From a virus: DNA of 36,620 bases. A program made the translations under genes and the position numbers. The stretch is from the IMG/VR virus record IMGVR_UViG_3300045988_182864, one strand, 5' to 3'. Positions 978 through 36,620 of the stretch are shown piece after piece. Every line of letters starts with the position of its first letter. Position 1 is the stretch's first letter. The notes under the pieces are model-generated. The model was given only the letters and a program-made list of their open reading frames with translations, did not search any database and was not told where the DNA came from.

Positions 978-1880
978 TCAAGTCATAGAATTCCAGTTAT
1001 TGCCCAACCATTCACACCAGCCTATGGTGGAGGAGGGGCAATTTTTACTGTCCGCGCAGATATGATTCAGCAGCATTGCCAAGTGAAACTTATCCAATGT
1101 CCGAATCATTTCGAGATTTGTCTTATCAGACTGCACGATTGTCATGTCAACGTCGGTTTTCGTCTTGATGTACGACACGGCGTCGCCCATCTTTTTGAAA
1201 AAAATTCCGCAGACCGGGACAAAGTATCCAACCTCGATGGAAAGCTCTGCCAAAAGACGGTAGCTGTCAGCAGTGTTCGTCCTCTGGAAAAGTTCATCGA
1301 ACTGAGCGCGAATTTTCTTCTCATCGTTTTTCCCAATGTCATTCAGGTCAAAGATGTATTCCTGAACAATGAACCCATTATTAGATTTCGTGGGCACATA
1401 TGCTTTGTAACAGGATGCATCAATCTGTTTCATGACAATCGGAAAGTCATGGGAAGACGTGGAATACAGACGCGCTTTATCGACTTCCTTTTTCAGCTTT
1501 TCCAGCAGCTTTTCAAGAACAGCCTTGAGATATTCGGCGTGCTGATGGCAGGTATCCACTTCTGTCTGGAACATACCGGTGTCATCTTTGAGCCGTCCGG
1601 TTTCCCAAGCTTTGTCAAAGACGCACTTGAGTTTCTGGAGCTCGGTTGCATCCAAGTTGTCGTATTTCCCAGACTTCGTTTTAGCCTCAAAAATGGCGAT
1701 TGCTTCACGCACTTCACTGTACGAATCAAGTATCAACTCAAGGTCCTCCAAAAAGAGTTTCTTGTTGATGTCGATGGAGTAATTGATGTCGGTAACGCGC
1801 AAGGTTACGATTTTTGCTTTTTCTTCGACATCGAACCCCATTTCCCGGCAAATATCCGGGAACTGTTTCAGATACATCAT
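978..1880 (-). CDS. hypothetical protein, 300 aa
   Basis: Long ORF with RBS gaggtg 5 nt upstream of the ATG. No motif recognised. Confidence 0.7.
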   Translation of the reverse strand: MMYLKQFPDICREMGFDVEEKAKIVTLRVTDINYSIDINKKLFLEDLELILDSYSEVREAIAIFEAKTKSGKYDNLDATELQKLKCVFDKAWETGRLKDDTGMFQTEVDTCHQHAEYLKAVLEKLLEKLKKEVDKARLYSTSSHDFPIVMKQIDASCYKAYVPTKSNNGFIVQEYIFDLNDIGKNDEKKIRAQFDELFQRTNTADSYRLLAELSIEVGYFVPVCGIFFKKMGDAVSYIKTKTDVDMTIVQSDKTNLEMIRTLDKFHLAMLLNHICADSKNCPSSTIGWCEWLGNNWNSMT

Positions 1881-2013
1881 AATTTCACCTCAAACTTTCT
1901 CAGCGATATCTTCGCCGTATACCATGCTCAGGTTGGAACCGTTGTCCAATTCGGCAACATAGCTAAAATCTACAGTTAATGTGTTTGTCGTAGGCAATTT
2001 CTCCTTTCCAAGT

Positions 2014-2146
2014 AAAAAAACAGACCCGCCAAAATGGTGGGTCTGCTTGTTGTTTACAGATTGTGAATTGTACGGTGGAAAATGCTGCTAAGTGGAATGT
2101 TATCTATCGTACACTTCCATTCTATTCGGTTCGCACAAACATGCAA
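2014..2146 (-). promoter_or_regulatory. Cassette A: promoter TTGCAT-16nt-TAGAAT, conserved leader (box1 TGTACGATAGATAACATTCCA, box2 GTACAATTCACAAT) and intrinsic terminator
   Basis: -35 at 2141-2146, -10 at 2119-2124, TGCGAA in the spacer. Box1 2093-2113, box2 2060-2073. Hairpin cagaccc/gggtctg plus T7 at 2014-2045. Confidence 0.7.
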
Positions 2147-6247: not shown

Positions 6248-6389
6248 AAAAAAAGCAGACCTACCACGAATGGTAAGTCTGCCTAATTTGAAAACAGAAT
6301 TGTGAATGATGTACGCCCGAAAGATTCGGCTGTGTAGAATGTTATCTATCGTACAATACCAATTCTATGCCGTTCGCAAGGATACGCAA
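6248..6389 (-). promoter_or_regulatory. Cassette B: promoter TTGCGT-16-TAGAAT, conserved leader and terminator
   Basis: -35 6384-6389, -10 6362-6367. Box1 6337-6354, box2 6298-6314. Terminator ggcagactTACC-attcg-tGGTAggtctgc plus T7 at 6248-6282. Confidence 0.7.
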
Positions 6390-7329: not shown

Positions 7330-7459
7330 AAAAAAGCAGACTCTCATTTCGAGAGTCTGCTCTAAGCACATAACAGATTGTGAATCTACCGGTATGGGGA
7401 ATCAGAAGATGGTATCTATCATGCACTTACTATTCTATTCGATTCGCACAACTGTGCAA
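7330..7459 (-). promoter_or_regulatory. Cassette C: promoter TTGCAC-16-TAGAAT, divergent box1 (TGCATGATAGATACCATC), box2 ATTCACAAT and terminator
   Basis: -35 7454-7459, -10 7432-7437. Box2 7377-7385. Terminator gcagactctc-gaaat-gagagtctgc plus T6 at 7330-7360, about 30 nt before the RBS of 7055..7300. Confidence 0.65.
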
Positions 7460-9228: not shown

Positions 9229-9253
9229 GGCGCACCTCCGTTACTTTATTAGC

Positions 9254-9287
9254 ATTATACCACAAATGTGTATCCAGTACAACCATG
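9254..9287 (-). promoter_or_regulatory. Extended -10 promoter (TTGTAC-17-TGgTATAAT), family 2
   Basis: -10 at 9254-9259, TG at 9260-9262, -35 at 9277-9282. Shares the block catggttgtact...tgtggtataatgc with 19878-19927. Confidence 0.65.
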
Positions 9288-12217: not shown

Positions 12218-13756
12218 TTATGTAAATACAATCCCTTCGTTTTTGGCAACAAACTTACATTTACCAGATGAATACGAGTTGCCGTTTGTGTCGTAATATC
12301 CATCTGCCTGACCGTTGTGCGAGCTACTGGTTCCTTGCATCACATGAGTATGCTTGCCAACAAGAAACACACAGCCGGGAAAGTTGCGTTTTGGATTTCG
12401 ATATTCCGGATGATGCTCTTTTACCTTGAGTTTGTAAACGTCATCGGGATGGTTTTGACGAAACTCTTCCAAGCTGTCGGTGGTCTGTTTAATGGCTTTA
12501 TGTCGATTTGTAGCAACTGCCTTATCATTAAGCGTATACACACGGCTCATATTTGCTTTATGCAGTGCTCTTCTATCATGACGGCGGAACTGTTTAAGTT
12601 CATACGGCACACGATTGTTGATGCCGCTATCGCAAACATCATTTGGTAAAACAGAACAAGCGATACAATAAGCATCGAGCCAATGGTCTTTGCTTACACC
12701 GTGCGCTGCACGGTAATCGTAGGTGCTCTTTCCCGTTGTTACGAAAAAGTGCTTTGGAAAAAGAGTGTTTAATCTTTCCGTTAACGCGGGAATGATTTGA
12801 TTTAGCACACTTTGCGCACCGTATTTTTTATTGAGTCCGGTTTTCTTTTTGGCAAGCTTCTTTTGCCATGTAGTATCTTTATGCACAAGGTCGTGGTGTT
12901 TTGTGCATAAGCCAACGATGTTATCAATGGTGTTGCTGCCGTTTTCGGATTGCGGTACTACATGATGATAATGGGCGATAGGCTTCTTGCAAAACAAGCA
13001 ATGGCGTTCCTGCATTTCAGAGACAGCTTCTTCAAGGCTTGCTTTTTGATAGAGCGGGCCTTGCTGATATTGCCATTTCTGAACATTGGGATTATCCAGC
13101 CGCATAAACGCAAATTTATTGACTTCCAACACAACATCACTGATAGGAAGAAACTTCCGAATCTTCTTTACCAAGTTAATGTGTGTCTGCAACAACTGAT
13201 TTGCGGTGGGCGTAAGCCAGCCTTCCGGTCTTGTGCGATTGCTAAACTTTGCTTCTTTGTTCTTGATGCCGATACAAAGGACTTCTTTCTCGCAACCCGG
13301 AAGATGGCGCTTGATGACACCAATCTCCTTTGCACGCTTGCTGACGCTGCCATTTTGAGCTGTGGCTTGCTTTACGCATTTCTTGGAAATGGTGTCATTG
13401 GCTTTAGCTCTACGTTGACGGCGGCAGCGTCTGCCGTTGGTGCGTCTTGCGCGGCGAGAGTCTTTGCGCTTTTTCATCAACTTGGGAATTTCCTTATTGC
13501 GAGTTTCCAGATGTGCAGTAAAGACTGCCGTGCCGTCCGTTTTAACAACAGCAACGCCGATATTGGTTCTGCCGGGGTCGATGCCTAAGTAAAGCGGCTG
13601 CACTACATCGTTGGTTTCATACAACAGTTGAATGGTAAATGGTTTTGATGCTACGACTCGCGCTTTCTTCTCTTTCAGAAGGTAGCGGATATGACCACAG
13701 CGAGTCGTAGGCATTAAAGGTTTACCGTTTTTATTAAGCACATACACAGTGGACAT
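12218..13756 (-). CDS. iscB: IscB (OMEGA system RNA-guided nuclease: PLMP, split RuvC, Arg-rich bridge helix and HNH), 512 aa
   Basis: VYVLNKNGKPLMP (PLMP domain). LGIDPGRTNIG (RuvC-I). RRARRTNGRRCRRQRRA (bridge helix). VVLEVNKF (RuvC-II). CLFCKKPIAHYHHVVPQSENGSNTIDNIVGLCTKHHDLVH (HNH). KDHWLDAYC (RuvC-III). True start MSTVYV with RBS aaaggaggtggcgtat-ATG. Confidence 0.85.
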   Translation of the reverse strand: MSTVYVLNKNGKPLMPTTRCGHIRYLLKEKKARVVASKPFTIQLLYETNDVVQPLYLGIDPGRTNIGVAVVKTDGTAVFTAHLETRNKEIPKLMKKRKDSRRARRTNGRRCRRQRRAKANDTISKKCVKQATAQNGSVSKRAKEIGVIKRHLPGCEKEVLCIGIKNKEAKFSNRTRPEGWLTPTANQLLQTHINLVKKIRKFLPISDVVLEVNKFAFMRLDNPNVQKWQYQQGPLYQKASLEEAVSEMQERHCLFCKKPIAHYHHVVPQSENGSNTIDNIVGLCTKHHDLVHKDTTWQKKLAKKKTGLNKKYGAQSVLNQIIPALTERLNTLFPKHFFVTTGKSTYDYRAAHGVSKDHWLDAYCIACSVLPNDVCDSGINNRVPYELKQFRRHDRRALHKANMSRVYTLNDKAVATNRHKAIKQTTDSLEEFRQNHPDDVYKLKVKEHHPEYRNPKRNFPGCVFLVGKHTHVMQGTSSSHNGQADGYYDTNGNSYSSGKCKFVAKNEGIVFT

Positions 13757-15672: not shown

Positions 15673-15759
15673 ATGGTATGTCGCCCACGAAAACAGACGA
15701 CAGTTGCATGGCTTGATTTTGCAGCGAATATCACATTTTATCGCTGTTTTTATGATTGT

Positions 15760-15811
15760 ATTATACCATATTCTGATGCAGATTTGTAGCGAGTACAAGT
15801 ATGATTTACAA
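15760..15811 (-). promoter_or_regulatory. Extended -10 promoter (TGgTATAAT) with conserved upstream block, family 2
   Basis: -10 at 15760-15765 and TG at 15766-15768. The upstream block ttgtaaatcatacttgtac is shared with 23114-23165. Confidence 0.55.
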
Positions 15812-15966
15812 ACAATTAACATCTGAGCGAGTCGCATTTTGTGCGCTTGCTTGTCGTATTTGTCTGGCGCGAATCAGCGCTGAATCTTCCTCGTCAGAAA
15901 ACAGTCAAAAACAACAGCAACACAAACGCGAGTCTTTGCAAGTTTCTAAAATGGCGTTTTCTTGGC

Positions 15967-16677
15967 TCAAGGCTTGCTCTCTGCGGGTGCTGGCGTCCAG
16001 TATAAGAGCGTTCCGAGGATATCGCACATCGGTGCCGCCTCGAAGAAGCAAAGTGTTTCCAGAGCGTCTCTGAGGCGCTGCTCGTAGTCTGTGCGCTGCA
16101 TATCAAGGGGAACCAGCACCTTGTAGGAGCCGAAAGGCGCTTTCAGAACGGGAGATTCGGATGTCTGGTTCTCAGAAAGGTCACTCTCCCAGCCGCAGGT
16201 AACGAGATAGTCATACAGAGCATAGGGGTTTACAGCAGAGACCGTCTTTCTGCCATCAAGCATCTTGTAGGCACGGAGATACTTGGCTTCTCGTGCAAGG
16301 TCTTTGCTTGTGAGAGGATACGGGATTCGGTTAAGGTCCATGTTGCTGACGAGGTCTGCGCGTTTTACCTTGACGGCAATGTCGTTTTGCTTAACACGCC
16401 AGATATACTCTGAGTAGGTCATATCTTTTTCCCGAGTCAGTACAGAGACCGCCTCAGCCACTTTCTGAGGAAATTCCGCTCTGATGGTATCTATCGTGGT
16501 GCCGGTATCTTCCACCGTGTCGTGCAGGTAGGCGGCAGTTTTCACCAGCGGGTCAGGCTCAACGCCGTCTGCGACAACGGCCACATGCGCCGTGAAGTAG
16601 TCTTCCCCTGCCTTGTCGGTCTGGCCCTTGTGCGCCATCATAGCGAACGCCTTTGCTTTTTCAATGTAATCAATCAT
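15967..16677 (-). CDS. HD-domain protein, RelA/SpoT-type (p)ppGpp hydrolase-like N-terminal domain, 236 aa
   Basis: AMMAHKGQTDKAGEDYFTAHV...AAYLHDTVEDT carries the H...HD...ED signature of SpoT-like hydrolases. Start MIDYIEK with RBS aaaggtgatacga. Confidence 0.65.
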   Translation of the reverse strand: MIDYIEKAKAFAMMAHKGQTDKAGEDYFTAHVAVVADGVEPDPLVKTAAYLHDTVEDTGTTIDTIRAEFPQKVAEAVSVLTREKDMTYSEYIWRVKQNDIAVKVKRADLVSNMDLNRIPYPLTSKDLAREAKYLRAYKMLDGRKTVSAVNPYALYDYLVTCGWESDLSENQTSESPVLKAPFGSYKVLVPLDMQRTDYEQRLRDALETLCFFEAAPMCDILGTLLYWTPAPAESKP

Positions 16678-16813: not shown

Positions 16814-19771
16814 TTACTCCGCAGCGCCCTCAACGATTACGACCTCAGCCTCGGTTTCCTTAGGCATGTCGGCATCTTCCTGCTTGGTGTCGGTGCTGTC
16901 CTCGGAAGTCTCGGCAGACTTCTCGGTCTCAGCGGACTCAACAGGAGCGGCAGGCTCGGCGGGAGTCTCAGCAGGTATAGCGGGCTCAACAGGAGCAACG
17001 GGCTCGGCAGGAGTTTCAGCAGGTACAGCAGACTCAACCGGAGTCTCTGCGACATAGGTTTCGGCGTTGATGCTCTCGGCGCTCATTTCCTGCGCCGGAA
17101 CCTCGACAACAGGCTCAGCCCCGGCTACGATAGGGTTTGCAGCCACCTTGGCACTTGCGGGCAGACGAGCGATGGACTCAGTCTTGGTCTCGCCGCAGCC
17201 AGTGCAAGTGTAGGTCTTGACACCCTCATGCTCAGTGGTAGGCTCGGTGGTAACGACACCGTTATCCCAAGTATGGTCTTTCTTGGGCGTGGTAGAGAGA
17301 ACGGTGCTCACTTCACCGCAGACGGTGCAGTAGATTTCGGTGCGACCCTCTTCCTTGCAGGTAGGCTCAATGACACGCATCTCGGCATGGTGACCGGTGG
17401 AGTGTACAATGTTGTCCTTGTAGGAGAAGCTGTCATCTTCGTTGCACTTGTGCATCGTGTAGCCGTCCTCGGTGCAAGTCGGCGGGACAACGGTAACAGT
17501 GAAGGTGTACTTGGTGGGCAGGACCTTTTCGGTCATGGTCGCATCGCAGTTCTTGCAGTGCAGGGTCTTGACGCCGTACTCGTCATGCGTGGGCTGGGTA
17601 GTGATGACACCCTCATCCCAGATATGACCAGTACCACCATAGGAGTAGGTCATGGTATGGGAAGCATCGCGCTTGCAGTGCATCAGCATAGTGCCCGGCT
17701 CGGTGCAGGTAGCCTTTTTCAGGCATTCGGTGTGCTCGAAGTCCCAGTCGTGGCTGCCGATAGCGGGCATAGGAACGAGAATTTTGCTGTCGCAGCCATC
17801 ATTGGTGCAGTACATCCAACGCTCGCCCTCAGTCTCACAAGAGGGCTCCTTGACGATTTCACCGAGACCCGTGTACTCATGGACATGGACCTTGGCAATG
17901 CTCTCGGTCTTGGTCTTGTTGCAGACGGTGCAGGTATAGGTCTTGATGCCCGGCTCGGTGGCAGTAGGCTCCTTGGTGATAACGCCCTCGTCCCACTGAT
18001 GCTCCTCATTGACGGGGATATCGCGGACATGCTGCTTATCGTTGCAGCGCTCACAGACCTTATCTACACTGCCAGCGTCCTTGCAGGTGGCGGGAGTAGT
18101 GACTTCCTTGTACTCATGACCCAGCGCAGGGACGATGTTGTCCTTGAAGGACTTGGTGGCATCTTCCACGCACTCGTGCATGGTATAGCCGTCCTCAGTG
18201 CAGGTAGGAGCGACCACGGTCTCGTTGTAGGTGTAACCCAGAGCCGGAATGCTCTCGGTGTAGGTATCACCACAGTTGTGGCAGGTGAAGGTCTTGACAC
18301 CGTTCTCGGTGTAGGTAGGCTCGGTGGTCACAACGCCGTCATCGTAATCGTGACCGGTTGCGGGGATGACCTCGGTGTAGGTATGGTTCTTGTCGTTCTG
18401 GCAAGTGAAGGTCTTGACGCCATCCTCAGTGCAGGTAGCAGCCTTGGTGACAACGCCGTCATCGTAGTTATGACCCAGCGCGGCAATCTCCTCGGTCTTA
18501 GTCTCGGTGCAGCCATCGTTCAGGCACTTGTAGGTCTTCACGCCGGAAGCCTCACAGGTAGCGGGCGTGGTGACAGTACCATCATCCCACTTGTGACCCA
18601 CAGCCGGGATGACCTCAGTCTTGGTCGCGCCGTCACGAGAGCAGGTAAAGGTCTTGACGCCATCCTCAGTGCAGGTAGCAGCCTTGGTGACGACACCCTC
18701 GCCCCAATCATGGTCCAGAGCGTCCACGAAATCGCGGTTCTCGGTCAGCGTAGCGTCCTGGTCGCAGATGTAGACGGTGTAGCCCTGCTCAGTGCAGGTG
18801 GGAGCAACCGTATCACCCTTGTGCCAAGTCTTCTCCACCATCGGGATATCCTCGGTATAGGTATCACCGCAAGCAGAGCAGGTAAAGGTCTTGACGCCCT
18901 TCTCGTAGATGGTCGCTTCCTTGGTCACGACACCCTCATCATAGGTGTGCGGGGTCTTGTCGGTGAAATTGCCCTTGTAAGTAAGACCCGGAACCTCATT
19001 GCACTCATAGATGGTATAGCCCTCAGAAGTGCAGGTGGGAGCAACGACCTGCAGGATGTGGTAGGTCTTGTCCAGAGAAGGAATCTCCTCAGTACGGGTC
19101 TCACCGCAATCCTTGCACTTGAAGGTCTTGATGCCGGTCTCGGTGTAGGTGGCAGCTTTCGTCACAGTGCCGTTATCCCAGCTATGCCCCTTGGCGGCAA
19201 CATAGTTGTCGTTGTAGTTCATACCGCCCCACTCGTTGCAGATATGCTCATCATAGCCCTGCGTGGTGCAGGTGGCGTCATGATGGCGCACGGTGAAGGT
19301 GTAGACGGGCTGAGACTTCTTCTCGGCAGGAGCGGCAGCGGGAGTCACAGCAGCAGGCTTCTGGGCAGGAGTCTTGGTGCCGGTGGTGGTTTTATGGGTG
19401 TTGTAGACGGGAGCCTTGGCGGGACCGTCCTTAGTAGAAACATTGTCGGGGTTCGTGTTCTGGCTGGCGGCGGGCTTCTCAGCCTTGTCGGAAGCGGCCT
19501 CAGACTCAGCGGTCTTGTTCTCGGTGTTGGCAGCATCGGAATTGGGCTTGCTCTCAGCCTTGCTCTCGGACGCCGCCGCGCTGGTATCTTCCTTCTCGGC
19601 AGTGTCAGGGGTTTCGGACTGTGCGGTGCTTGCGGAATCGCTCAGGCTGGTGGAAGGAGCAGAAGAGGCAGCATCCTGATTCTTCTTGCCCTTACATCCG
19701 GTAACAGAGATTGCGACTGTAGCAGCCATGGCAACTGCAAGCACATTCTTCATCATAGACTTTTTGCGCAT
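16814..19771 (-). CDS. large secreted lipoprotein with about 20 tandem Cys-containing repeats and P/A/E-rich termini, 985 aa
   Basis: Signal peptide with lipobox AISVTG-C. Repeats of the form GHxWDxGVVTKxATCTEDGVKTFTCxxCGxTxTExIPA. Near-identical DNA repeats, e.g. 18400-18455 versus 18640-18695. RBS aaaaggagaagtaaaatc-ATG. Confidence 0.8.
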   Translation of the reverse strand: MRKKSMMKNVLAVAMAATVAISVTGCKGKKNQDAASSAPSTSLSDSASTAQSETPDTAEKEDTSAAASESKAESKPNSDAANTENKTAESEAASDKAEKPAASQNTNPDNVSTKDGPAKAPVYNTHKTTTGTKTPAQKPAAVTPAAAPAEKKSQPVYTFTVRHHDATCTTQGYDEHICNEWGGMNYNDNYVAAKGHSWDNGTVTKAATYTETGIKTFKCKDCGETRTEEIPSLDKTYHILQVVAPTCTSEGYTIYECNEVPGLTYKGNFTDKTPHTYDEGVVTKEATIYEKGVKTFTCSACGDTYTEDIPMVEKTWHKGDTVAPTCTEQGYTVYICDQDATLTENRDFVDALDHDWGEGVVTKAATCTEDGVKTFTCSRDGATKTEVIPAVGHKWDDGTVTTPATCEASGVKTYKCLNDGCTETKTEEIAALGHNYDDGVVTKAATCTEDGVKTFTCQNDKNHTYTEVIPATGHDYDDGVVTTEPTYTENGVKTFTCHNCGDTYTESIPALGYTYNETVVAPTCTEDGYTMHECVEDATKSFKDNIVPALGHEYKEVTTPATCKDAGSVDKVCERCNDKQHVRDIPVNEEHQWDEGVITKEPTATEPGIKTYTCTVCNKTKTESIAKVHVHEYTGLGEIVKEPSCETEGERWMYCTNDGCDSKILVPMPAIGSHDWDFEHTECLKKATCTEPGTMLMHCKRDASHTMTYSYGGTGHIWDEGVITTQPTHDEYGVKTLHCKNCDATMTEKVLPTKYTFTVTVVPPTCTEDGYTMHKCNEDDSFSYKDNIVHSTGHHAEMRVIEPTCKEEGRTEIYCTVCGEVSTVLSTTPKKDHTWDNGVVTTEPTTEHEGVKTYTCTGCGETKTESIARLPASAKVAANPIVAGAEPVVEVPAQEMSAESINAETYVAETPVESAVPAETPAEPVAPVEPAIPAETPAEPAAPVESAETEKSAETSEDSTDTKQEDADMPKETEAEVVIVEGAAE

Positions 19772-19877
19772 GATTTTACTTCTCCTTTTTACTGTGTGAG
19801 GTGAGTCCCCACATCAACGAAACGATGTGAAGAGCGGAGGACTTCTGATATTTCGTTTTCCCTGTCGCTCTATATGC

Positions 19878-19927
19878 ATTATACCACATTTTTCCTTGAA
19901 AGTGTACTGAGTACAACCATGATTAAC
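19878..19927 (-). promoter_or_regulatory. Extended -10 promoter (TGTGgTATAAT), family 2, upstream of the lipoprotein gene
   Basis: -10 at 19878-19883, TG at 19884-19886. Conserved block catggttgtactcagtacac. Confidence 0.55.
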
Positions 19928-20013
19928 GTAATGTTCACAAATCGCAACAGAATCCGAGAGGCTCCTATCGGGAAAAAACGATTCTGGTACGATGAAAAGA
20001 AGCGCAAATATGT

Positions 20014-20050: not shown

Positions 20051-20138
20051 TGGCGGATAGGGTAGGATTCGAACCCACGGACGCGGATGCATCTCTGGTT
20101 TTCAAGACCAGTTTCATAAACCACTCGGACACCTATCC
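20051..20138 (-). tRNA. tRNA-Ser: tRNA-Ser(TGA), type II
   Basis: Acceptor GGATAGG/CCTATCC, G73, CCA, anticodon arm CTGGT-CTTGAAA-ACCAG, T-arm GTGGG-TTCGAAT-CCTAC. Confidence 0.9.
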
Positions 20139-20179
20139 AAGAATCAGAGAGTGTTAGCCGCAGAAATCTGCGTTGCCCG

Positions 20180-20214
20180 CCATCTACCGCGTGGAGGTCG
20201 CTCTCAAAAGATGG
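20180..20214 (-). repeat. Conserved hairpin motif, copy 1 (plus-strand loop ACCGCGTGGAGG; minus-strand CCUCCACGCGG)
   Basis: Stem ccatct/agatgg, preceded by gttgccc. Confidence 0.6.
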
Positions 20215-20446
20215 CTGACGAGACGAATTTGTCTCGCCCATGCCGCAGCCGTTTTCGCCACTCGGCATGGTGTTTTCGGCTTGACGTAACCCTGTGTAAA
20301 TGACCCTCAGGTGGGGGCGGTGCGGGCAGGATTATCGTCTTCGTGGTGTAGTTAAGGAGTACCGCACCAAATAAATGACCGTACTGCGCTTGTGTAACAG
20401 TACAATGCACGCCCAGAGACGATTTCCAAGATGGAGATGTGTCTGG

Positions 20447-22505: not shown

Positions 22506-22581
22506 TGGCGGGTCGTACTGGGTTCGAACCAGCGACGCTCGGATTAACAGTCCGATGCTCTACCGACTGAGCTAACGACCC
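22506..22581 (-). tRNA. tRNA-Asn: tRNA-Asn(GTT)
   Basis: GGGTCGTTAGCTCAGTCGGTAGAGC..., anticodon loop CTGTTAA, T-arm GCTGG-TTCGAAC-CCAGT, GCCA end. It abuts the previous tRNA with no spacer. Confidence 0.9.
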
Positions 22582-22628
22582 AAGAAAAAAGACATTCGCC
22601 ACGGGGAGCTCAATACCCGTGTTACCGC

Positions 22629-22660
22629 CGCTCGCCGCGAGGAGGCTGTCTTTATGAGCG
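22629..22660 (-). repeat. Conserved hairpin motif, copy 3 (loop GCCGCGAGGAGG)
   Basis: Stem cgctc/gagcg, preceded by gttaccg. Confidence 0.55.
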
Positions 22661-22842
22661 ACAACTCTTATGGGATACCAGATACGATGCTTGCCGCTGC
22701 TCTACAACCAGCCGCAAGCGGATGTGTATGTAAGTGTGTGTAAAACTATGATGTTGTTTCGGAGCGTATCTGGTATCTTTTAAGAGTTTTATGTTATCTG
22801 CGAAGATGTTCGCCAAGCTAAGGGAGGTTAAGCTTGTTGCCC

Positions 22843-23030: not shown

Positions 23031-23113
23031 CACAAAAGTGCCACATACAGTGTCCAGAACGGAAAATGTTGTGCATAAGCACAACATATAGTGTTTTCCG
23101 TTTCTGTACTTGC

Positions 23114-23165
23114 ATTATACCATATTTTGGCGTGAAAGTGTATCAAATACAAGTATGATTTACAA
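23114..23165 (-). promoter_or_regulatory. Extended -10 promoter (TGgTATAAT), family 2
   Basis: -10 at 23114-23119, TG at 23120-23122. Upstream block ttgtaaatcatacttgtat is shared with 15760-15811. Confidence 0.55.
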
Positions 23166-23898
23166 AATGTTCAAACACTTTTCCGGACTCGATGCGTTCC
23201 GGAAATCGCAGACTCTTGTTGCCGACGCGGTGCATCCGGTGGTCGATGACATCAGAACGGCGCATCTGTTCCGCGTTTACGCAAAAGCCTGTACCGTAGT
23301 ATTGCATGTAGTTACTTCGTTGCTCTTTGTTTTCCGCAGCCCTCCCGAAAGGTCTCCGTTCATCGTGGACGAACACCGTATCCGAGCATAGAGCGAAATC
23401 GAGGTAGTGCATTGCCGCCATGCGCTCAAAGACATATATCTGCCTGGTCTCGATGAAATAATAAAAGATATAGTCGGCTTCCTTGTACAGCCATCCCTTT
23501 GAGTGCTTGGCTATCGCTTTCTGGTATTTTCCAAACCGCAGCAGTTTGTCATCTTCCCCGATAGCAAAACTATTCACCGCTGTTTCGAGGAATACATTCC
23601 CAGTTTTGTAGGTGTCAGCCTTGGCTTCCACCGTGAATGAAGAACCGTCCTTCCGGTATACAACGAAGTCAATGTCGTCTTCCTGATATTTCTTGTCATC
23701 CCGTACATCCGAAAATCCCGCAATCCTGTCCTTGTGCGTTTCGCAGTAGTAGTCAAGATAGTGCATGGTGACAGATTCGCCAATCAGACCTACCTTCATC
23801 TGACCCGCCATGTTATAGGGCGTCTTGTTTTTCTGTCTGTACAAGGGTATTACCTCACGATGTTTCCGCAAAACGGGCACTTTGCGCCTTTCCGGCAA
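23143..23898 (-). CDS. putative PD-(D/E)xK-fold nuclease, 251 aa (start uncertain)
   Basis: EDDIDFVVYRKDGSSFTVEAKAD fits D...(D/E)xK. The ORF overlaps the upstream gene by 49 nt if 23898 is the start. Confidence 0.45.
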   Translation of the reverse strand: MPERRKVPVLRKHREVIPLYRQKNKTPYNMAGQMKVGLIGESVTMHYLDYYCETHKDRIAGFSDVRDDKKYQEDDIDFVVYRKDGSSFTVEAKADTYKTGNVFLETAVNSFAIGEDDKLLRFGKYQKAIAKHSKGWLYKEADYIFYYFIETRQIYVFERMAAMHYLDFALCSDTVFVHDERRPFGRAAENKEQRSNYMQYYGTGFCVNAEQMRRSDVIDHRMHRVGNKSLRFPERIESGKVFEHFVNHTCI

Positions 23899-27729: not shown

Positions 27730-27740
27730 AAAAACCTCCC

Positions 27741-27877
27741 AAAATAAAAGAAGCAAGCTCCCGAAAGAACTTGCTTCTTATAATCTGTGTTCACTTTTTT
27801 CGCGTGATGCGGGCAAAAAACTCACCCACTGATTCACTTTACAGTTTTCATTTTACCCAATTCGCACGAATGTGCAA
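27741..27877 (-). promoter_or_regulatory. Cassette D: family 1 promoter TTGCAC-16-TAAAAT, non-homologous leader and terminator directly before the RBS of the HTH operon
   Basis: -35 at 27872-27877, -10 at 27850-27855, TGCGAA in the spacer. Hairpin aagaagcaag...cttgcttctt followed by ttatttt at 27741-27779. Confidence 0.6.
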
Positions 27878-28397: not shown

Positions 28398-28425
28398 ATT
28401 GTATCCGGTTCGCACGATTATGCAA
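28398..28425 (-). promoter_or_regulatory. Family 1 promoter TTGCAT-16-TACAAT with TGCGAA spacer element (no leader terminator)
   Basis: -35 at 28420-28425, -10 at 28398-28403, spacer aatcgTGCGAAccgga. Confidence 0.65.
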
Positions 28426-29522: not shown

Positions 29523-30269
29523 TCAGATGTACTTTTCCCAGAATTTCTCGAAGGTTTCGTCCGGCATCACCATTTCCGTCTCATCGAGGACACGGCTGAA
29601 CTCGCTGCTGCTGATGTCGGTGCCGATGAAATCCGTGACGGCATCGCGGCCACGCTGCATCAGGGCATCTTTCAGGATATACCAGCGGTATTTGTGGATG
29701 AGGTCCGTCAGAGATTCGCCGTCGTTCTCCCAGTAATCGTTCTTTGCCTGAACATGATACAGAGCATCGAGAACGCCGTCGTAGTCATCGCTGTCATACT
29801 CGCTCACGATGTCGGTGAGATTGAGCAGACTGCGGTCAACGCCATCGACATTCACGGTTGCGTTTCTGAACGAGTCATCGTAGCAGGGCTGTGCAGGAAC
29901 TTCCACAGCAAACACCTCGCGGGTTTTCTTGTTCACCTTGCACGGCAGATGGAACGATGCACCAGAATCGAAGTTCGAGGTGATGACGCCGGATACAATA
30001 TCGGGCATCGGGTTTTCGCGAGCCTCCTCAAACTCCGGCAGATGGAACACATCCACGACATTCTCGATGTCGTAGTCAAGGGCACGGACCTTCGTGACGA
30101 TGTAGCCACCACGCTGCAATTCGAGAACTGCACGGCAGAGGTCAAGCTTAATCTCGTGCTCATTCAGAAGACCACCGTGACTGTCTTTCACGAGGGTGAT
30201 TTCGATTGTTTTGTTCTTGGCAGTCGTTTCGGCCAGAAAATAGGTCTTGTCATTGCAAATTTCAAACAT
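29523..30269 (-). CDS. hypothetical protein, 248 aa
   Basis: RBS aaaaaggagcgtaatgac-ATG. The first 24 codons are duplicated at 31900. Confidence 0.65.
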   Translation of the reverse strand: MFEICNDKTYFLAETTAKNKTIEITLVKDSHGGLLNEHEIKLDLCRAVLELQRGGYIVTKVRALDYDIENVVDVFHLPEFEEARENPMPDIVSGVITSNFDSGASFHLPCKVNKKTREVFAVEVPAQPCYDDSFRNATVNVDGVDRSLLNLTDIVSEYDSDDYDGVLDALYHVQAKNDYWENDGESLTDLIHKYRWYILKDALMQRGRDAVTDFIGTDISSSEFSRVLDETEMVMPDETFEKFWEKYI

Positions 30270-30298
30270 GTCATTACGCTCCTTTTTGTGTTGGACGC

Positions 30299-30436
30299 AA
30301 AAAGAGCGGGCCTCTCAGAATCGAGAAGTCCGCCCTTCAAGCGAAATTGTGAATGTACGAAAGGCATAAACCCTTTCGATATGGAATGTTATCTATCGTA
30401 CAATACCTATTCTATGCCATTCGCACGTTTTGGCAA
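30299..30436 (-). promoter_or_regulatory. Cassette F: promoter TTGCCA-16-TAGAAT, conserved leader and terminator
   Basis: -35 at 30431-30436, -10 at 30409-30414. Box1 30382-30402, box2 30346-30358. Internal hairpin cgaaagg/cctttcg. Terminator region 30299-30336. Confidence 0.7.
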
Positions 30437-30437
30437 G

Positions 30438-30469
30438 AAAAAAGTCGCTGCCCCAGCATAGGCAGCGAC
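30438..30469 (-). terminator. Rho-independent terminator after gene 30485..31558
   Basis: gtcgctgcc-tatgctgg-ggcagcgac followed by tttttt. Confidence 0.8.
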
Positions 30470-31714: not shown

Positions 31715-31900
31715 CTAGCTAAAACCCTTGTCGCGGATTTGCATTTCGTCGTACATAGCACGGACAAACGCAGTGGCATCTACCTCCCGGTGCTGCGTGT
31801 AAGCACGAAGCCTATCCCTTGCAAGGGTGATTTCGATTGTTTTGTTCTTGGTGGTCGTTTCGGCCAGAAAATAGGTCTTGTCATTGCAAATTTCAAACAT
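31715..31900 (-). CDS. short ORF of 61 aa sharing its first 24 codons with 29523..30269. It ends at a TAG that is followed in frame by 50 more sense codons (to 31562)
   Basis: Start MFEICNDKTYF with RBS aaaaaggagcgtaatgac. The in-frame continuation FHQCGSSQEEDRNYYGNQFFEVWSVTDENNAKRMAEIIAKKIGTNIENGG ends 3 nt before the next ATG. Confidence 0.5.
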   Translation of the reverse strand: MFEICNDKTYFLAETTTKNKTIEITLARDRLRAYTQHREVDATAFVRAMYDEMQIRDKGFS

Positions 31901-31930
31901 GTCATTACGCTCCTTTTTCGTATTGGACGC

Positions 31931-32069
31931 AAAAAGAGCGGGCTTCTCAGAATTGAGAAGTCCGCTCTTCAAGCGAAATTGTGAATGTACGAAAGGCACA
32001 AAACCCTTTCGATATGGAATGTTATCTATCGTACAATACCTATTCTATGCCGTTCGCATTTTTTGGCAA
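31931..32069 (-). promoter_or_regulatory. Cassette G: promoter TTGCCA-16-TAGAAT, conserved leader and terminator
   Basis: -35 at 32064-32069, -10 at 32042-32047. Box1 32015-32035, box2 31978-31990. Terminator gagcggacttctca-attc-tgagaagcccgctc followed by ttttt. Confidence 0.7.
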
Positions 32070-32070
32070 G

Positions 32071-32103
32071 AAAAAAGTCGCTGCCCCCAGCATAGGCAGC
32101 GAC
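32071..32103 (-). terminator. Rho-independent terminator after gene 32115..33131
   Basis: gtcgctgcc-tatgctggg-ggcagcgac followed by tttttt. Confidence 0.8.
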
Positions 32104-33131: not shown

Positions 33132-33209
33132 TGTCTCTTACCTCCTTTATTATACCATGTTCGCAAGAAAAATGCACTACTATGTTGGATAGAAAGTGCT
33201 TTTGTACGC

Positions 33210-33349
33210 AAAAAAAGAGTGGGCCTTCCCTTTTTGGGAAAGTCCACTCTGATTGCGGATTGTAAATGATACGAAAGGCGGAATGCCTTTGTCGATTGCT
33301 GGTATCTATCGTACAATATCAATTCTATGCTGTTCGCACATTTTGGCAA
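33210..33349 (-). promoter_or_regulatory. Cassette H: promoter TTGCCA-16-TAGAAT, conserved leader (variant boxes) and strong terminator
   Basis: -35 at 33344-33349, -10 at 33322-33327. Box1 TGTACGATAGATACCAGCA at 33299-33320, box2 GTATCATTTACAAT at 33259-33272. Terminator agagtggactttccc-aaaaa-gggaaggcccactct followed by T7. Confidence 0.7.
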
Positions 33350-35897: not shown

Positions 35898-36620
35898 TCA
35901 GGTGTTTGCAAAATCCGGATTCTTCCAAATCAACTTATTCCCGTAATAGACTTCGGGAATGTACTTGATGGGAATTCTGCGATTGTCTTCGAGTTGCGAA
36001 TCGTTGTTCGCGATAAACTCCTCGATGCGATTTTCTTCACTGCGCGGGGTGATGTTACAAGTCGAGAAACCTCCACCGTACAGGATATCACTGTTCATCA
36101 TACCTTTGACCGGATACTTTACTTCGGTCGTTTTACCGTTGATGTTCAGGACAAGGCGAACGGTTTTGTATTGCTTAGCAAGTTCCACAAGAAGCCTGAA
36201 CATGATTTCCTGAGTGTTCGGACTATTGTACTTTCTCATATACTCTTCCGTCAACTCTTCCACCACAGCCAATGTAATCCCGTATAGGCTTCCATGCCGC
36301 CCGGAATTTGCCTTTTTGATTTTCTCCATCGTCCGTTCAGCCCAGCCAGTGGGATTAGCAAGATAATCCACTACCAGTTCATCGGCATTTGTGGATGTCA
36401 GGCCAAAGCAAGACCCTTTTCCAATCTCATCGACGATGCTGTCAATAGGGCTGCGATAATTCTTATACCCCTTTATTATGCGACAGAAAGCGTTCTGTCG
36501 TGCTATCTTGTCGTAATGACTGCCCTTGAGAATTTTCTTCTTGTCTTCTTCCGTCACATTCTCTCGGAACATATCGAACAGCTTCTGTGCCATTTCCTCT
36601 ATGACAGAATCCGAGGTAAA
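35898..36620 (-). CDS. C-terminal part of the junction-spanning hypothetical gene (see 1..371)
   Basis: ORF 35898..36593 in the track. The frame stays open to the window end and continues at 1..371. Confidence 0.7.
   Translation of the reverse strand, partial: FTSDSVIEEMAQKLFDMFRENVTEEDKKKILKGSHYDKIARQNAFCRIIKGYKNYRSPIDSIVDEIGKGSCFGLTSTNADELVVDYLANPTGWAERTMEKIKKANSGRHGSLYGITLAVVEELTEEYMRKYNSPNTQEIMFRLLVELAKQYKTVRLVLNINGKTTEVKYPVKGMMNSDILYGGGFSTCNITPRSEENRIEEFIANNDSQLEDNRRIPIKYIPEVYYGNKLIWKNPDFANT
36553..36620. repeat. Terminal direct repeat, copy 2 (identical to 1-68)
   Basis: Same 68 nt as the window start. Confidence 0.95.

Follow-up and report, generated by a model that had tools for sequence, protein, structure and literature searches.

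A repeated promoter-locked leader with an intrinsic terminator is a candidate attenuation gate on the operons of a gut phage-like element

The window analysed here is the whole of IMG/VR virus record IMGVR_UViG_3300045988_182864, 36,620 nucleotides (nt) of DNA, and our subject is a repeated element on its minus strand whose flagged copy lies at positions 2146 to 2014. This copy is a complete small transcription unit, which we call the cassette, made of a promoter, a leader and a terminator. The promoter is of the sigma-A type (TTGCAT-16-TAGAAT) and carries TGCGAA within its spacer. Two conserved boxes follow it, box1 and box2, which can pair to form a helix that we call P1, and the leader ends in the terminator. 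A ribosome-binding site (RBS), GGAAAGGAG, lies directly 3′ of the terminator, ahead of an open reading frame (ORF) of 35 amino acids (aa). The features of the cassette, with the genes behind it, are these:

2141–2146, minus strand: −35 hexamer TTGCAT, read from the sequence (family consensus TTGCCA)
2130–2135, minus strand: spacer element TGCGAA, 5 nt before the −10 hexamer
2119–2124, minus strand: −10 hexamer TAGAAT, read from the sequence
2099–2112, minus strand: box1, GTACGATAGATAAC, six bases 3′ of the −10 hexamer and near-invariant in 80 distinct model-aligned sequences
2111–2106 and 2106–2101, minus strand: −10-like hexamers TACGAT and TAGATA, both inside box1
2108–2113, minus strand: 5′ strand of P1, UGUACG, pairing with 2069–2074
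2069–2074, minus strand: 3′ strand of P1, CGUACA, the start of box2, pairing with 2108–2113
2074–2060, minus strand: box2, CGTACAATTCACAAT
2069–2060, minus strand: box2 portion AATTCACAAT
2060–2068, minus strand: box2 core AUUCACAAU, conserved, unpaired in predicted folds
2056–2060, minus strand: linker UCUGU, candidate 5′ strand of an antiterminator, complementary to GCAGA at 2042–2046
2021–2046, minus strand: hairpin of the intrinsic terminator, whose 5′ base GCAGAC is near-invariant family-wide
2014–2020, minus strand: U-tract of the terminator, seven U
978–1997, minus strand: genes gated by the leader, the 35-aa ORF (1997–1890) and a 300-aa ORF (1880–978)

G2112 is the probable +1, placed by its spacing to the −10 hexamer and not by mapping. 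In this copy about 25 poorly structured bases separate box1 from box2, and a linker of 13 nt leads from box2 to the terminator. The leader has a predicted fold of −23.4 kcal/mol (z = −4.7 against shuffles), to which the terminator is the main contributor. The first-pass annotation had described −10-like hexamers just after the start site, an invariant promoter element, pairing between the boxes and a terminator. All of these features are present, on the minus strand, but the copy, the positions and the hexamers needed correction. Thus, the sequence quoted there, ATTGTACGATAGATAAC, is the family consensus, and the flagged copy reads AGTGTACGATAGATAAC. With G2112 as +1, the hexamers fall at about +2 to +7 (TACGAT) and at +7 to +12 (TAGATA), not across +4 to +15. 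The helix between the boxes is of 6 base pairs (bp) here, UGUACG with CGUACA, and not of 7–9 bp, and the variable hairpin that it was said to enclose, P3 below, is nearly absent from this copy.

The cassette is repeated along the window. With up to two mismatches, TACGATAGATAAC occurs six times against 0.48 expected, and a covariance model of box1, P3 and box2 matches exactly six copies, all on the minus (gene) strand. The flagged copy is the first of them (model match 2060–2113), and the others are listed here with the related promoters:

6248–6389, minus strand: second copy, from promoter to U-tract; model match 6299–6355, 57 bits
7330–7459, minus strand: third copy, a GCATGA variant without a P1 partner; model match 7377–7425, 24 bits
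30299–30436, minus strand: fourth copy; model match 30346–30402
31931–32069, minus strand: fifth copy, a recent duplicate of the fourth; model match 31978–32035
33210–33349, minus strand: sixth copy, followed by a second, leaderless TGCGAA promoter; model match 33259–33315
33160–33165 and 33149–33154, minus strand: TGCGAA and −10 hexamer of the leaderless promoter after the sixth copy
28398–28425, minus strand: leaderless promoter of the TGCGAA type, driving a 155-aa acidic protein (28360–27893)
27740–27877, minus strand: TGCGAA promoter with a different leader and its own terminator, preceding an operon of helix-turn-helix (HTH) and AAA genes

The fourth and fifth copies lie in a recent duplication (30193–30454 and 31824–32087, 97–98% identity) that comprises the whole cassette and the 5′ end of the gene (MFEICNDKTYF...), and the N-termini of the 344-aa and 357-aa proteins that neighbour it look paralogous. 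The leader at 27877 has two AAGTGAA(T/C) repeats around a hairpin, then its own terminator, and the operon behind it encodes three Mor-like multi-HTH proteins, an AAA ATPase and a DUF4379 zinc-finger protein.

Beyond the window, an exact-pattern scan of IMG/VR gave at least 120 loci, and the family counts that follow rest on the matches listed. These related loci, 720 kb in all, contain 179 covariance-model matches, about one per 4 kb, and the related IMG/VR contigs hold hundreds of cassettes. Among the 185,579 GTDB species genomes the motif is found in only two ‘Clostridiales’ metagenome-assembled genome (MAG) species, in one of them many times on one 224-kb contig. This restricted distribution suggests an element-specific partner. 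Rfam has no matching family, either in a gathering-threshold scan of the whole window or in a scan of 1950–2200 at E ≤ 10, in which the matches were chance-level small RNA (sRNA) or leader families driven by the terminator. A megablast of 25 kb against 50,697 phage records returned tRNA fragments only, and so no near-identical known phage, and neither the box1 sequence nor any related description came up in a full-text search of the literature.

The leader is held in a fixed register to its promoter. When 212 unique copies were aligned, anchored on box1 only, the consensus was T-rich, cTTGCCA, N5, TGCGAA, N5, TAgAAT, N7, GTACGATAGATAmCA. The −35 and −10 hexamers are 16 nt apart in 172 of 180 copies, TGCGAA is always 5 nt from the −10 hexamer, and the G of box1 follows that hexamer at 7 nt in 163 copies and at 6 nt in 9, including the flagged copy. 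Since this G is the 7th or 8th base after the −10 hexamer and comes after a pyrimidine, it is likely to be +1. A register as rigid as 6–7 nt fits a role at the level of the DNA or of the 5′ end. TGCGAA, which had been called invariant, is indeed present in all eight promoters of the type in the window, but each of its positions is 83–90% conserved in the 212 relatives. A comparison of promoters speaks against the proposal that it binds a loading factor: TGCGAA stands at the same spacing on two promoters that lack a leader, at 28425 and 33165, and on that at 27877, whose leader is a different one. From its distribution, TGCGAA would behave as a general promoter element, not as a qut-type loading site. 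A tandem second promoter, with TGCGAA as its −35 and TACGAT as its −10 hexamer, was also considered; its spacer would be 19 nt, so it is unlikely.

The terminator is present in 191 of 193 unique leaders, with a mean energy of −21.3 kcal/mol and compensatory change in 9 of its 12 pairs. The expectation of a downstream terminator that releases a short RNA was therefore borne out, the predicted product being of about 100 nt. Behind 172 of 181 leaders comes an ORF that is co-oriented and has an RBS, its start codon lying a median of 29 nt beyond the terminator, and a promoter intervenes in only three of the 181. Since this leaves no room for promoters of their own, the downstream genes depend on read-through of the leader terminator. 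Their first ORFs fall into 62 unrelated clusters, mostly of unknown proteins. Moreover, 55% of the cassettes lie directly behind another terminator-like hairpin. These upstream terminators insulate the units, and insulation favours a local decision at each leader over processive modification.

The same counts bear on another reading, in which the cassette is a self-acting put-like RNA, or its transcript of about 100 nt is itself the product (a multi-copy sRNA or decoy with AAUUCACAAU as seed, or a 5′ stabiliser), and the genes are expressed by basal read-through. A strong promoter, a conserved 5′ domain, a single-stranded box and a terminator are the anatomy of sibling sRNAs; P1 stands at the very 5′ end, like 5′-terminal stabiliser hairpins; and an independent promoter separates copy 33349 from its gene. 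Such separation is the exception, however, since nearly all leaders stand immediately before a gene that has no other promoter. A constitutively antiterminating RNA would in turn make the universal terminator pointless, pairing of box2 with the only other leader type (that at 27877) is not significant, and no sRNA family of Rfam matches. We hold this reading to be rather improbable.

Next, the structure of the RNA between promoter and terminator was examined. A P1 helix of at least 6 bp can form in 176 of the 193 unique leaders and, after shuffling, in 33 of the 193, so that the complementarity of the two boxes is real and general, and P1 is 96.8% paired in the best 80 distinct sequences. An extension of P1 by ATT/AAT was set aside, since the added part probably precedes the start site; in the flagged copy GTG stands in its place. 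Hairpin P3, inside P1, behaves differently. All four of its modelled pairs covary, 88% of cells are paired, none of 500 shuffles reaches its score and slid controls collapse, although the alignment was fitted to the covariance model, so that the P3 result leans toward the model. Its stems visibly differ (GGCGC/GCGUU, GGCAC/GUGUU, GCAGC/GCUGC and AAAGG/CCUUU) and its loops are variable in sequence. The many G-U pairs make the P3 hairpin strand-specific, which indicates that it acts as RNA.

A possible antiterminator is present in the leader as well. Near-invariance of the terminator's 5′ base, GCrGACU, contrasts with an upper stem and loop that are free to vary, and would be accounted for if the base had a second pairing partner. 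The 5–8 bases after box2 (UCUGY or UUCGC) are complementary to the 5′ base, and this linker-terminator complementarity reaches at least 5 bp in 154 of 191 leaders compared to 66 of 191 shuffled ones. The two sides tend to change together: the partner of UUCGC is GCGGA in 35 cases and GCAGA in one, UCUGY is found with both of these, UCCGC is found with GUGGA, and a divergent leader with an unrelated terminator has a matching pair of its own, UGAAC/GUUCA. When the nascent RNA is folded up to the terminator loop, the antiterminator hairpin is in the minimum-energy fold of 138 of 174 unique leaders, and it is compatible there with the upper terminator stem.

Two single copies deserve mention here. 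In the GCATGA variant of the window (7345–7424, minus strand), RNAfold pairs the box1 sequence GCAUGAUAGAU with AUCUGUUAUGU, just after box2. This pairing of 11 bp, three of them G-U, would sequester the antiterminator strand; its z is only −1.1 and it is not general. In a related copy on another contig (L069:2169 region, plus strand), box1 and box2 are fused, as TAAAATAGTATTCGTACAATTTACAAT. The 5′ domain looks deleted there by recombination between two CGTAC repeats, and the linker and the terminator are kept.

A conserved domain some 55 nt long, in which junction bases are conserved and a distal helix covaries, followed by an expression platform with alternative pairing, is also what a small-molecule riboswitch would present. 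In that case a three-way-junction aptamer would sense a host metabolite or an alarmone and gate the terminator, and the element does carry an HD_4 (p)ppGpp-hydrolase-like gene. We nevertheless regard a riboswitch as very improbable. The motif is absent from bacterial chromosomes, being confined among the GTDB genomes to the two MAG species; the genes behind it belong to 62 unrelated families; there is no overlap between the antiterminator and the 3′ strand of P1; some conserved variants do without P1; and Rfam offers no family for it.

Our favoured reading, to which we give an even chance, is that the cassette is a promoter-locked, factor-dependent attenuation (antitermination) leader, which would serve as a regulon-wide gate on the operons of a gut phage-like element. 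We take it, most probably, for a previously undescribed gate on the expression of early genes and not for an established site of the lambda Q type. What sets it apart is that the leader is fused to the promoter in a fixed register, that it is extremely invariant over hundreds of copies, and that it forms a regulon-wide module on a mobile element.

In the mechanism that we propose, host sigma-A RNA polymerase would start at or beside the G of GTACGATAGATA. The first 55 nt or so would fold, P1 (GUACGA/UCGUAC) closing a junction that displays the invariant GAUAGAUAmCA and has P3 inside it, and the invariant single-stranded AAUUCACAAU would come next. UCUGY or UUCGC would then pair with GCrGACU, and the weak antiterminator hairpin so formed would precede the emergence of the terminator's 3′ arm. 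Unaided, this hairpin would be displaced by the far stronger terminator (about −21 kcal/mol), the RNA of about 100 nt would be released and the genes would stay off. A factor encoded or induced by the element, reading box1 and/or box2, would stabilise the antiterminator or otherwise block the terminator, and its action would switch on all the leader-bearing operons together. TACGAT at about +2 to +7 may add a sigma-dependent promoter-proximal pause, giving time for folding or for loading of the factor, and box1 may owe its invariance to being constrained twice, at the level of the DNA and at that of the RNA. The genes behind leaderless TGCGAA promoters, including those of the 155-aa protein and of a 338-aa protein, would be expressed first, and the HTH/AAA operon, with its own leader, may belong to this first-expressed group.

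Several results weigh against this reading. No homologue of Q, N or NusG/RfaH was found among the roughly 50 ORFs of the window with Pfam and PHROGs, which leaves no candidate for an RNA-binding antiterminator. The RNA-level role first ascribed to the pairing of box1 with box2 is plausible, P1 being widespread, but no compensatory change in P1 was found among the best 80 distinct sequences. Two degenerate scans of viral contigs for P1 variants, which returned mostly unrelated environmental matches, left three non-canonical types after filtering: GUAUGA, compensated by CAUAC; GAACGA, with a weak 4-bp partner at best; and GCAUGA, which is uncompensated, is conserved in many contigs and includes window copy 7459. 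P1 is usual, not obligatory. With P1 broken in the GCATGA variants and almost no P3 in the flagged copy, the 5′ RNA fold is not strictly required. A further candidate hairpin, P2 (UAGAU/AUCUA), was rejected, being 78% paired, without covariation and with its outer pairs broken in half of the sequences. The extreme invariance of box1 and its rigid promoter register fit a role as DNA no less well than one as RNA. As for the antiterminator, its helix is short (5–8 bp, G-U pairs included), and the main linker/terminator classes coincide with two lineages of cassettes that show a further difference beyond the U-tract. The linker-terminator covariation is thus largely confounded with lineage, and is suggestive but not proof.

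The search for a partner of the leader was extended to other kinds of factor. NGN or KOW domains were not found in the window ORFs, nor were protein domains of the CAT/PRD, TRAP, PyrR, HutP or ANTAR kinds. The 155-aa product of the leaderless promoter was considered as an RNA binder and is unconvincing, as it is acidic and has no PDB, Pfam or PHROG relative. A trans-acting RNA was considered too, with the AAGUGAA(U/C) repeats of the 27877 leader facing AUUCAC of box2; the duplex energies were no better than shuffled. Finally, box2 could act in the manner of a T-box, UUCACAA pairing with the anticodon loop of tRNA-His, but tRNA-His is not among the tRNAs of the window, and a bulge motif of the T-box kind was not seen.

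In function, the cassette comes closest to the terminator/antiterminator leaders of Firmicutes and to phage antitermination sites, although by the tests applied it belongs to none of the named families. With the Firmicutes attenuators (LicT/SacY-RAT, the TRAP-trp leader, PyrR and HutP) it shares a leader terminator whose 5′ arm can pair upstream, a weak antiterminator that would need a bound factor, and a layout in which one factor could control many operons. Unlike them, it has no RAT, (G/U)AG-repeat or PyrR-box, it comes with no CAT/PRD, TRAP or PyrR protein that we could find in the window, and its leader is fused in register to the promoter and carried on a mobile element. Linear conserved boxes on either side of a hairpin, in the early transcript and ahead of terminators, are likewise a feature of lambda N-nut, rrn boxA/boxB and HK022 put. 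The hairpin of the cassette resembles that of rrn boxB in being free in sequence and kept in structure; in contrast to lambda boxB, its loop is not conserved. The cassette consensus shows on inspection no box like CGCUCUUA or UGCUCUUUAACAA, which we take to be the boxA consensus. Nor does its predicted fold, a junction closed by P1 with one covarying hairpin, resemble the two adjacent stem-loops (about 65–70 nt) of put, which need no protein to act on polymerase, and, unlike this leader, neither nut nor put is locked to the start of transcription.

The first-pass annotation had read the cassette as a Q-type loading site. Sigma-containing polymerase at lambda PR′ is made to pause at +16/+17 by a −10-like element near +1, and this is the loading point of Q (PMC9191641). 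Applied here, sigma-A would rebind TACGAT and hold polymerase in a pause at about +16 to +25, a DNA-binding antiterminator would dock on TGCGAA or on the GATAGATA direct repeat, and polymerase would then resist the leader terminator and later ones. The likeness to lambdoid PR′-qut-tR′ is a fair one as regards the parts: the first ten or so bases of the transcript contain a −10-like hexamer, the promoter has a conserved element within it, and some 100 nt downstream lies a terminator at which a short RNA would be released, with genes behind it that need read-through. TACGAT keeps A2 and T6, is conserved and sits at about +2 to +7 in its rigid 6–7 nt register with the −10 hexamer. The conserved block is 16 nt long, approximately the distance from start to pause at lambda PR′ (PMC9191641). 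The natural box1 hexamers behind TGCGAA promoters, TACGAT, TATGAT, CATGAT and AACGAT, all keep A2, even the variants that break P1, and a P1 that is frozen and not covarying is what would be expected if its 5′ strand were constrained as DNA. The near-universal terminator agrees with such a site as well, and the three tandem-HTH Mor-like proteins of the window could bind it.

On the other side, TAGATA lacks T6, and of all the 17-mers in the window 18% contain a hexamer that is as −10-like as TACGAT, with A2, T6 and no fewer than four matches in six. The −10 resemblance alone is thus not beyond chance, and only its conservation and fixed position are notable. TGCGAA is on leaderless promoters too, and the sole Q-family match in the window, PF06530, scores 19.2 bits, below the cut-off of 26 bits, over a generic HTH, although a Q-family protein that is divergent or encoded outside the window may exist. 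In number and setting the cassettes, with six in 36.5 kb here, about one per 4 kb in relatives and more than half of them behind an upstream terminator that insulates them, are unlike the single late-operon site of PR′. Furthermore, the conserved RNA structure with its covarying P3, and the linker that would compete with the terminator, have no role at a Q-type site and point to RNA-level attenuation. What stands of the Q-type proposal is therefore its parts and the position of TACGAT; as a whole we judge it unlikely. Note that a sigma-dependent pause and attenuation are mutually compatible ideas.

The features of box1 that suit a loading site also suit a DNA operator at +1 to +16, bound by a repressor or activator of the element (for example a tandem-HTH Mor-like or Cro/CI-like protein), which would give stoperator-like control genome-wide and make the terminator a separate attenuator or a guard against leaks. 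Box1 is invariant and asymmetric and has a (GATA)2 direct repeat, its register to the promoter is rigid, P1 shows no covariation and several HTH regulators are encoded in the window. An operator would, however, leave unexplained box2, the covariation of P3, the universal terminator and the conserved terminator base, and box1 is never found away from these promoters, save for one coincidental match inside coding sequence at 16486–16498. We consider an operator improbable. Mycobacteriophage stoperators, like RfaH-ops and LoaP leaders, are short asymmetric elements repeated in one orientation at the heads of the operons of a regulon, but at ops and stoperator sites there is no coupling with a terminated leader and its RNA fold, and for RfaH-ops and LoaP no NusG paralogue was found among the window ORFs. 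CGATAG of box1 resembles CGGTAG, presumably the ops core, which we take as a lead only.

The favoured reading, a factor-dependent attenuation leader, can be joined to a pause in a more far-reaching form, which we put forward as speculation. The cassette would then be the cis half of an undescribed antitermination system of Firmicutes phages, combining a promoter-locked sigma-A pause/loading DNA (TACGAT/GATAGATA) with a nascent-RNA element (box2 and the antiterminator hairpin), and licensing host RNA polymerase at every early operon; a factor of the element, possibly tandem-HTH and Mor-like, would flip dozens of terminators. If the cassette is a factor-dependent terminator gate at all, the leader RNA or DNA could serve as bait for a new antiterminator or for a new Gram-positive use of sigma-dependent pausing, and the cassette would provide a portable terminator switch that is tightly off. 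Almost nothing is known about the timing of gene expression in the large phages of gut Clostridia, and such a gate would define a whole temporal gene class by sequence alone. Even as a familiar attenuator, the motif would be useful in annotating transcription units and in recognising this phage group in metagenomes.

The element that carries the cassettes is circular, as bases 1–68 of the window are identical to 36553–36620, giving a circle of 36,552 bp. It may be a complete phage, a satellite, a plasmid-like element or an assembly product; many of the related IMG/VR contigs are of 33–38 kb and others of 100–270 kb. Its genes include those of a dCMP deaminase, an HD-domain protein, a protein with a tail-lysozyme domain, a Cro/CI-like protein and the three Mor-like HTH regulators, and one protein has relatives in SPbeta-like phages. 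Capsid, portal and terminase genes were not recognised by Pfam or PHROGs among the window ORFs.

The window also encodes 14 tRNAs. Two HDV-like ribozymes (HDV-F-prausnitzii / theta-type), at 20145–20215 and 22588–22662 on the minus strand, each lie 6–7 nt upstream of a tRNA, Ser-TGA (20051–20138) and Asn-GTT (22506–22581), respectively. A second repeat family is found by the tRNA clusters, at 9253–9287, 15746–15812, 19864–19930 and 23100–23166 (families D9/D16/D18). Its minus strand resembles a promoter of a different type, TTGTAC ... TGGTATAAT, without TGCGAA, and its plus strand gives a weak covariance-model match. Two large proteins of the minus strand have further features of their own. 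That of 512 aa (12218–13756) joins an RRXRR domain (E = 2.5e-49) to HNH, an IscB-like architecture, from which a guide (omega) RNA might be expected to adjoin its gene. In that of 985 aa (16814–19771) the N-terminus resembles a signal peptide, and there are long internal repeats, their periods being 237 and 351 nt.

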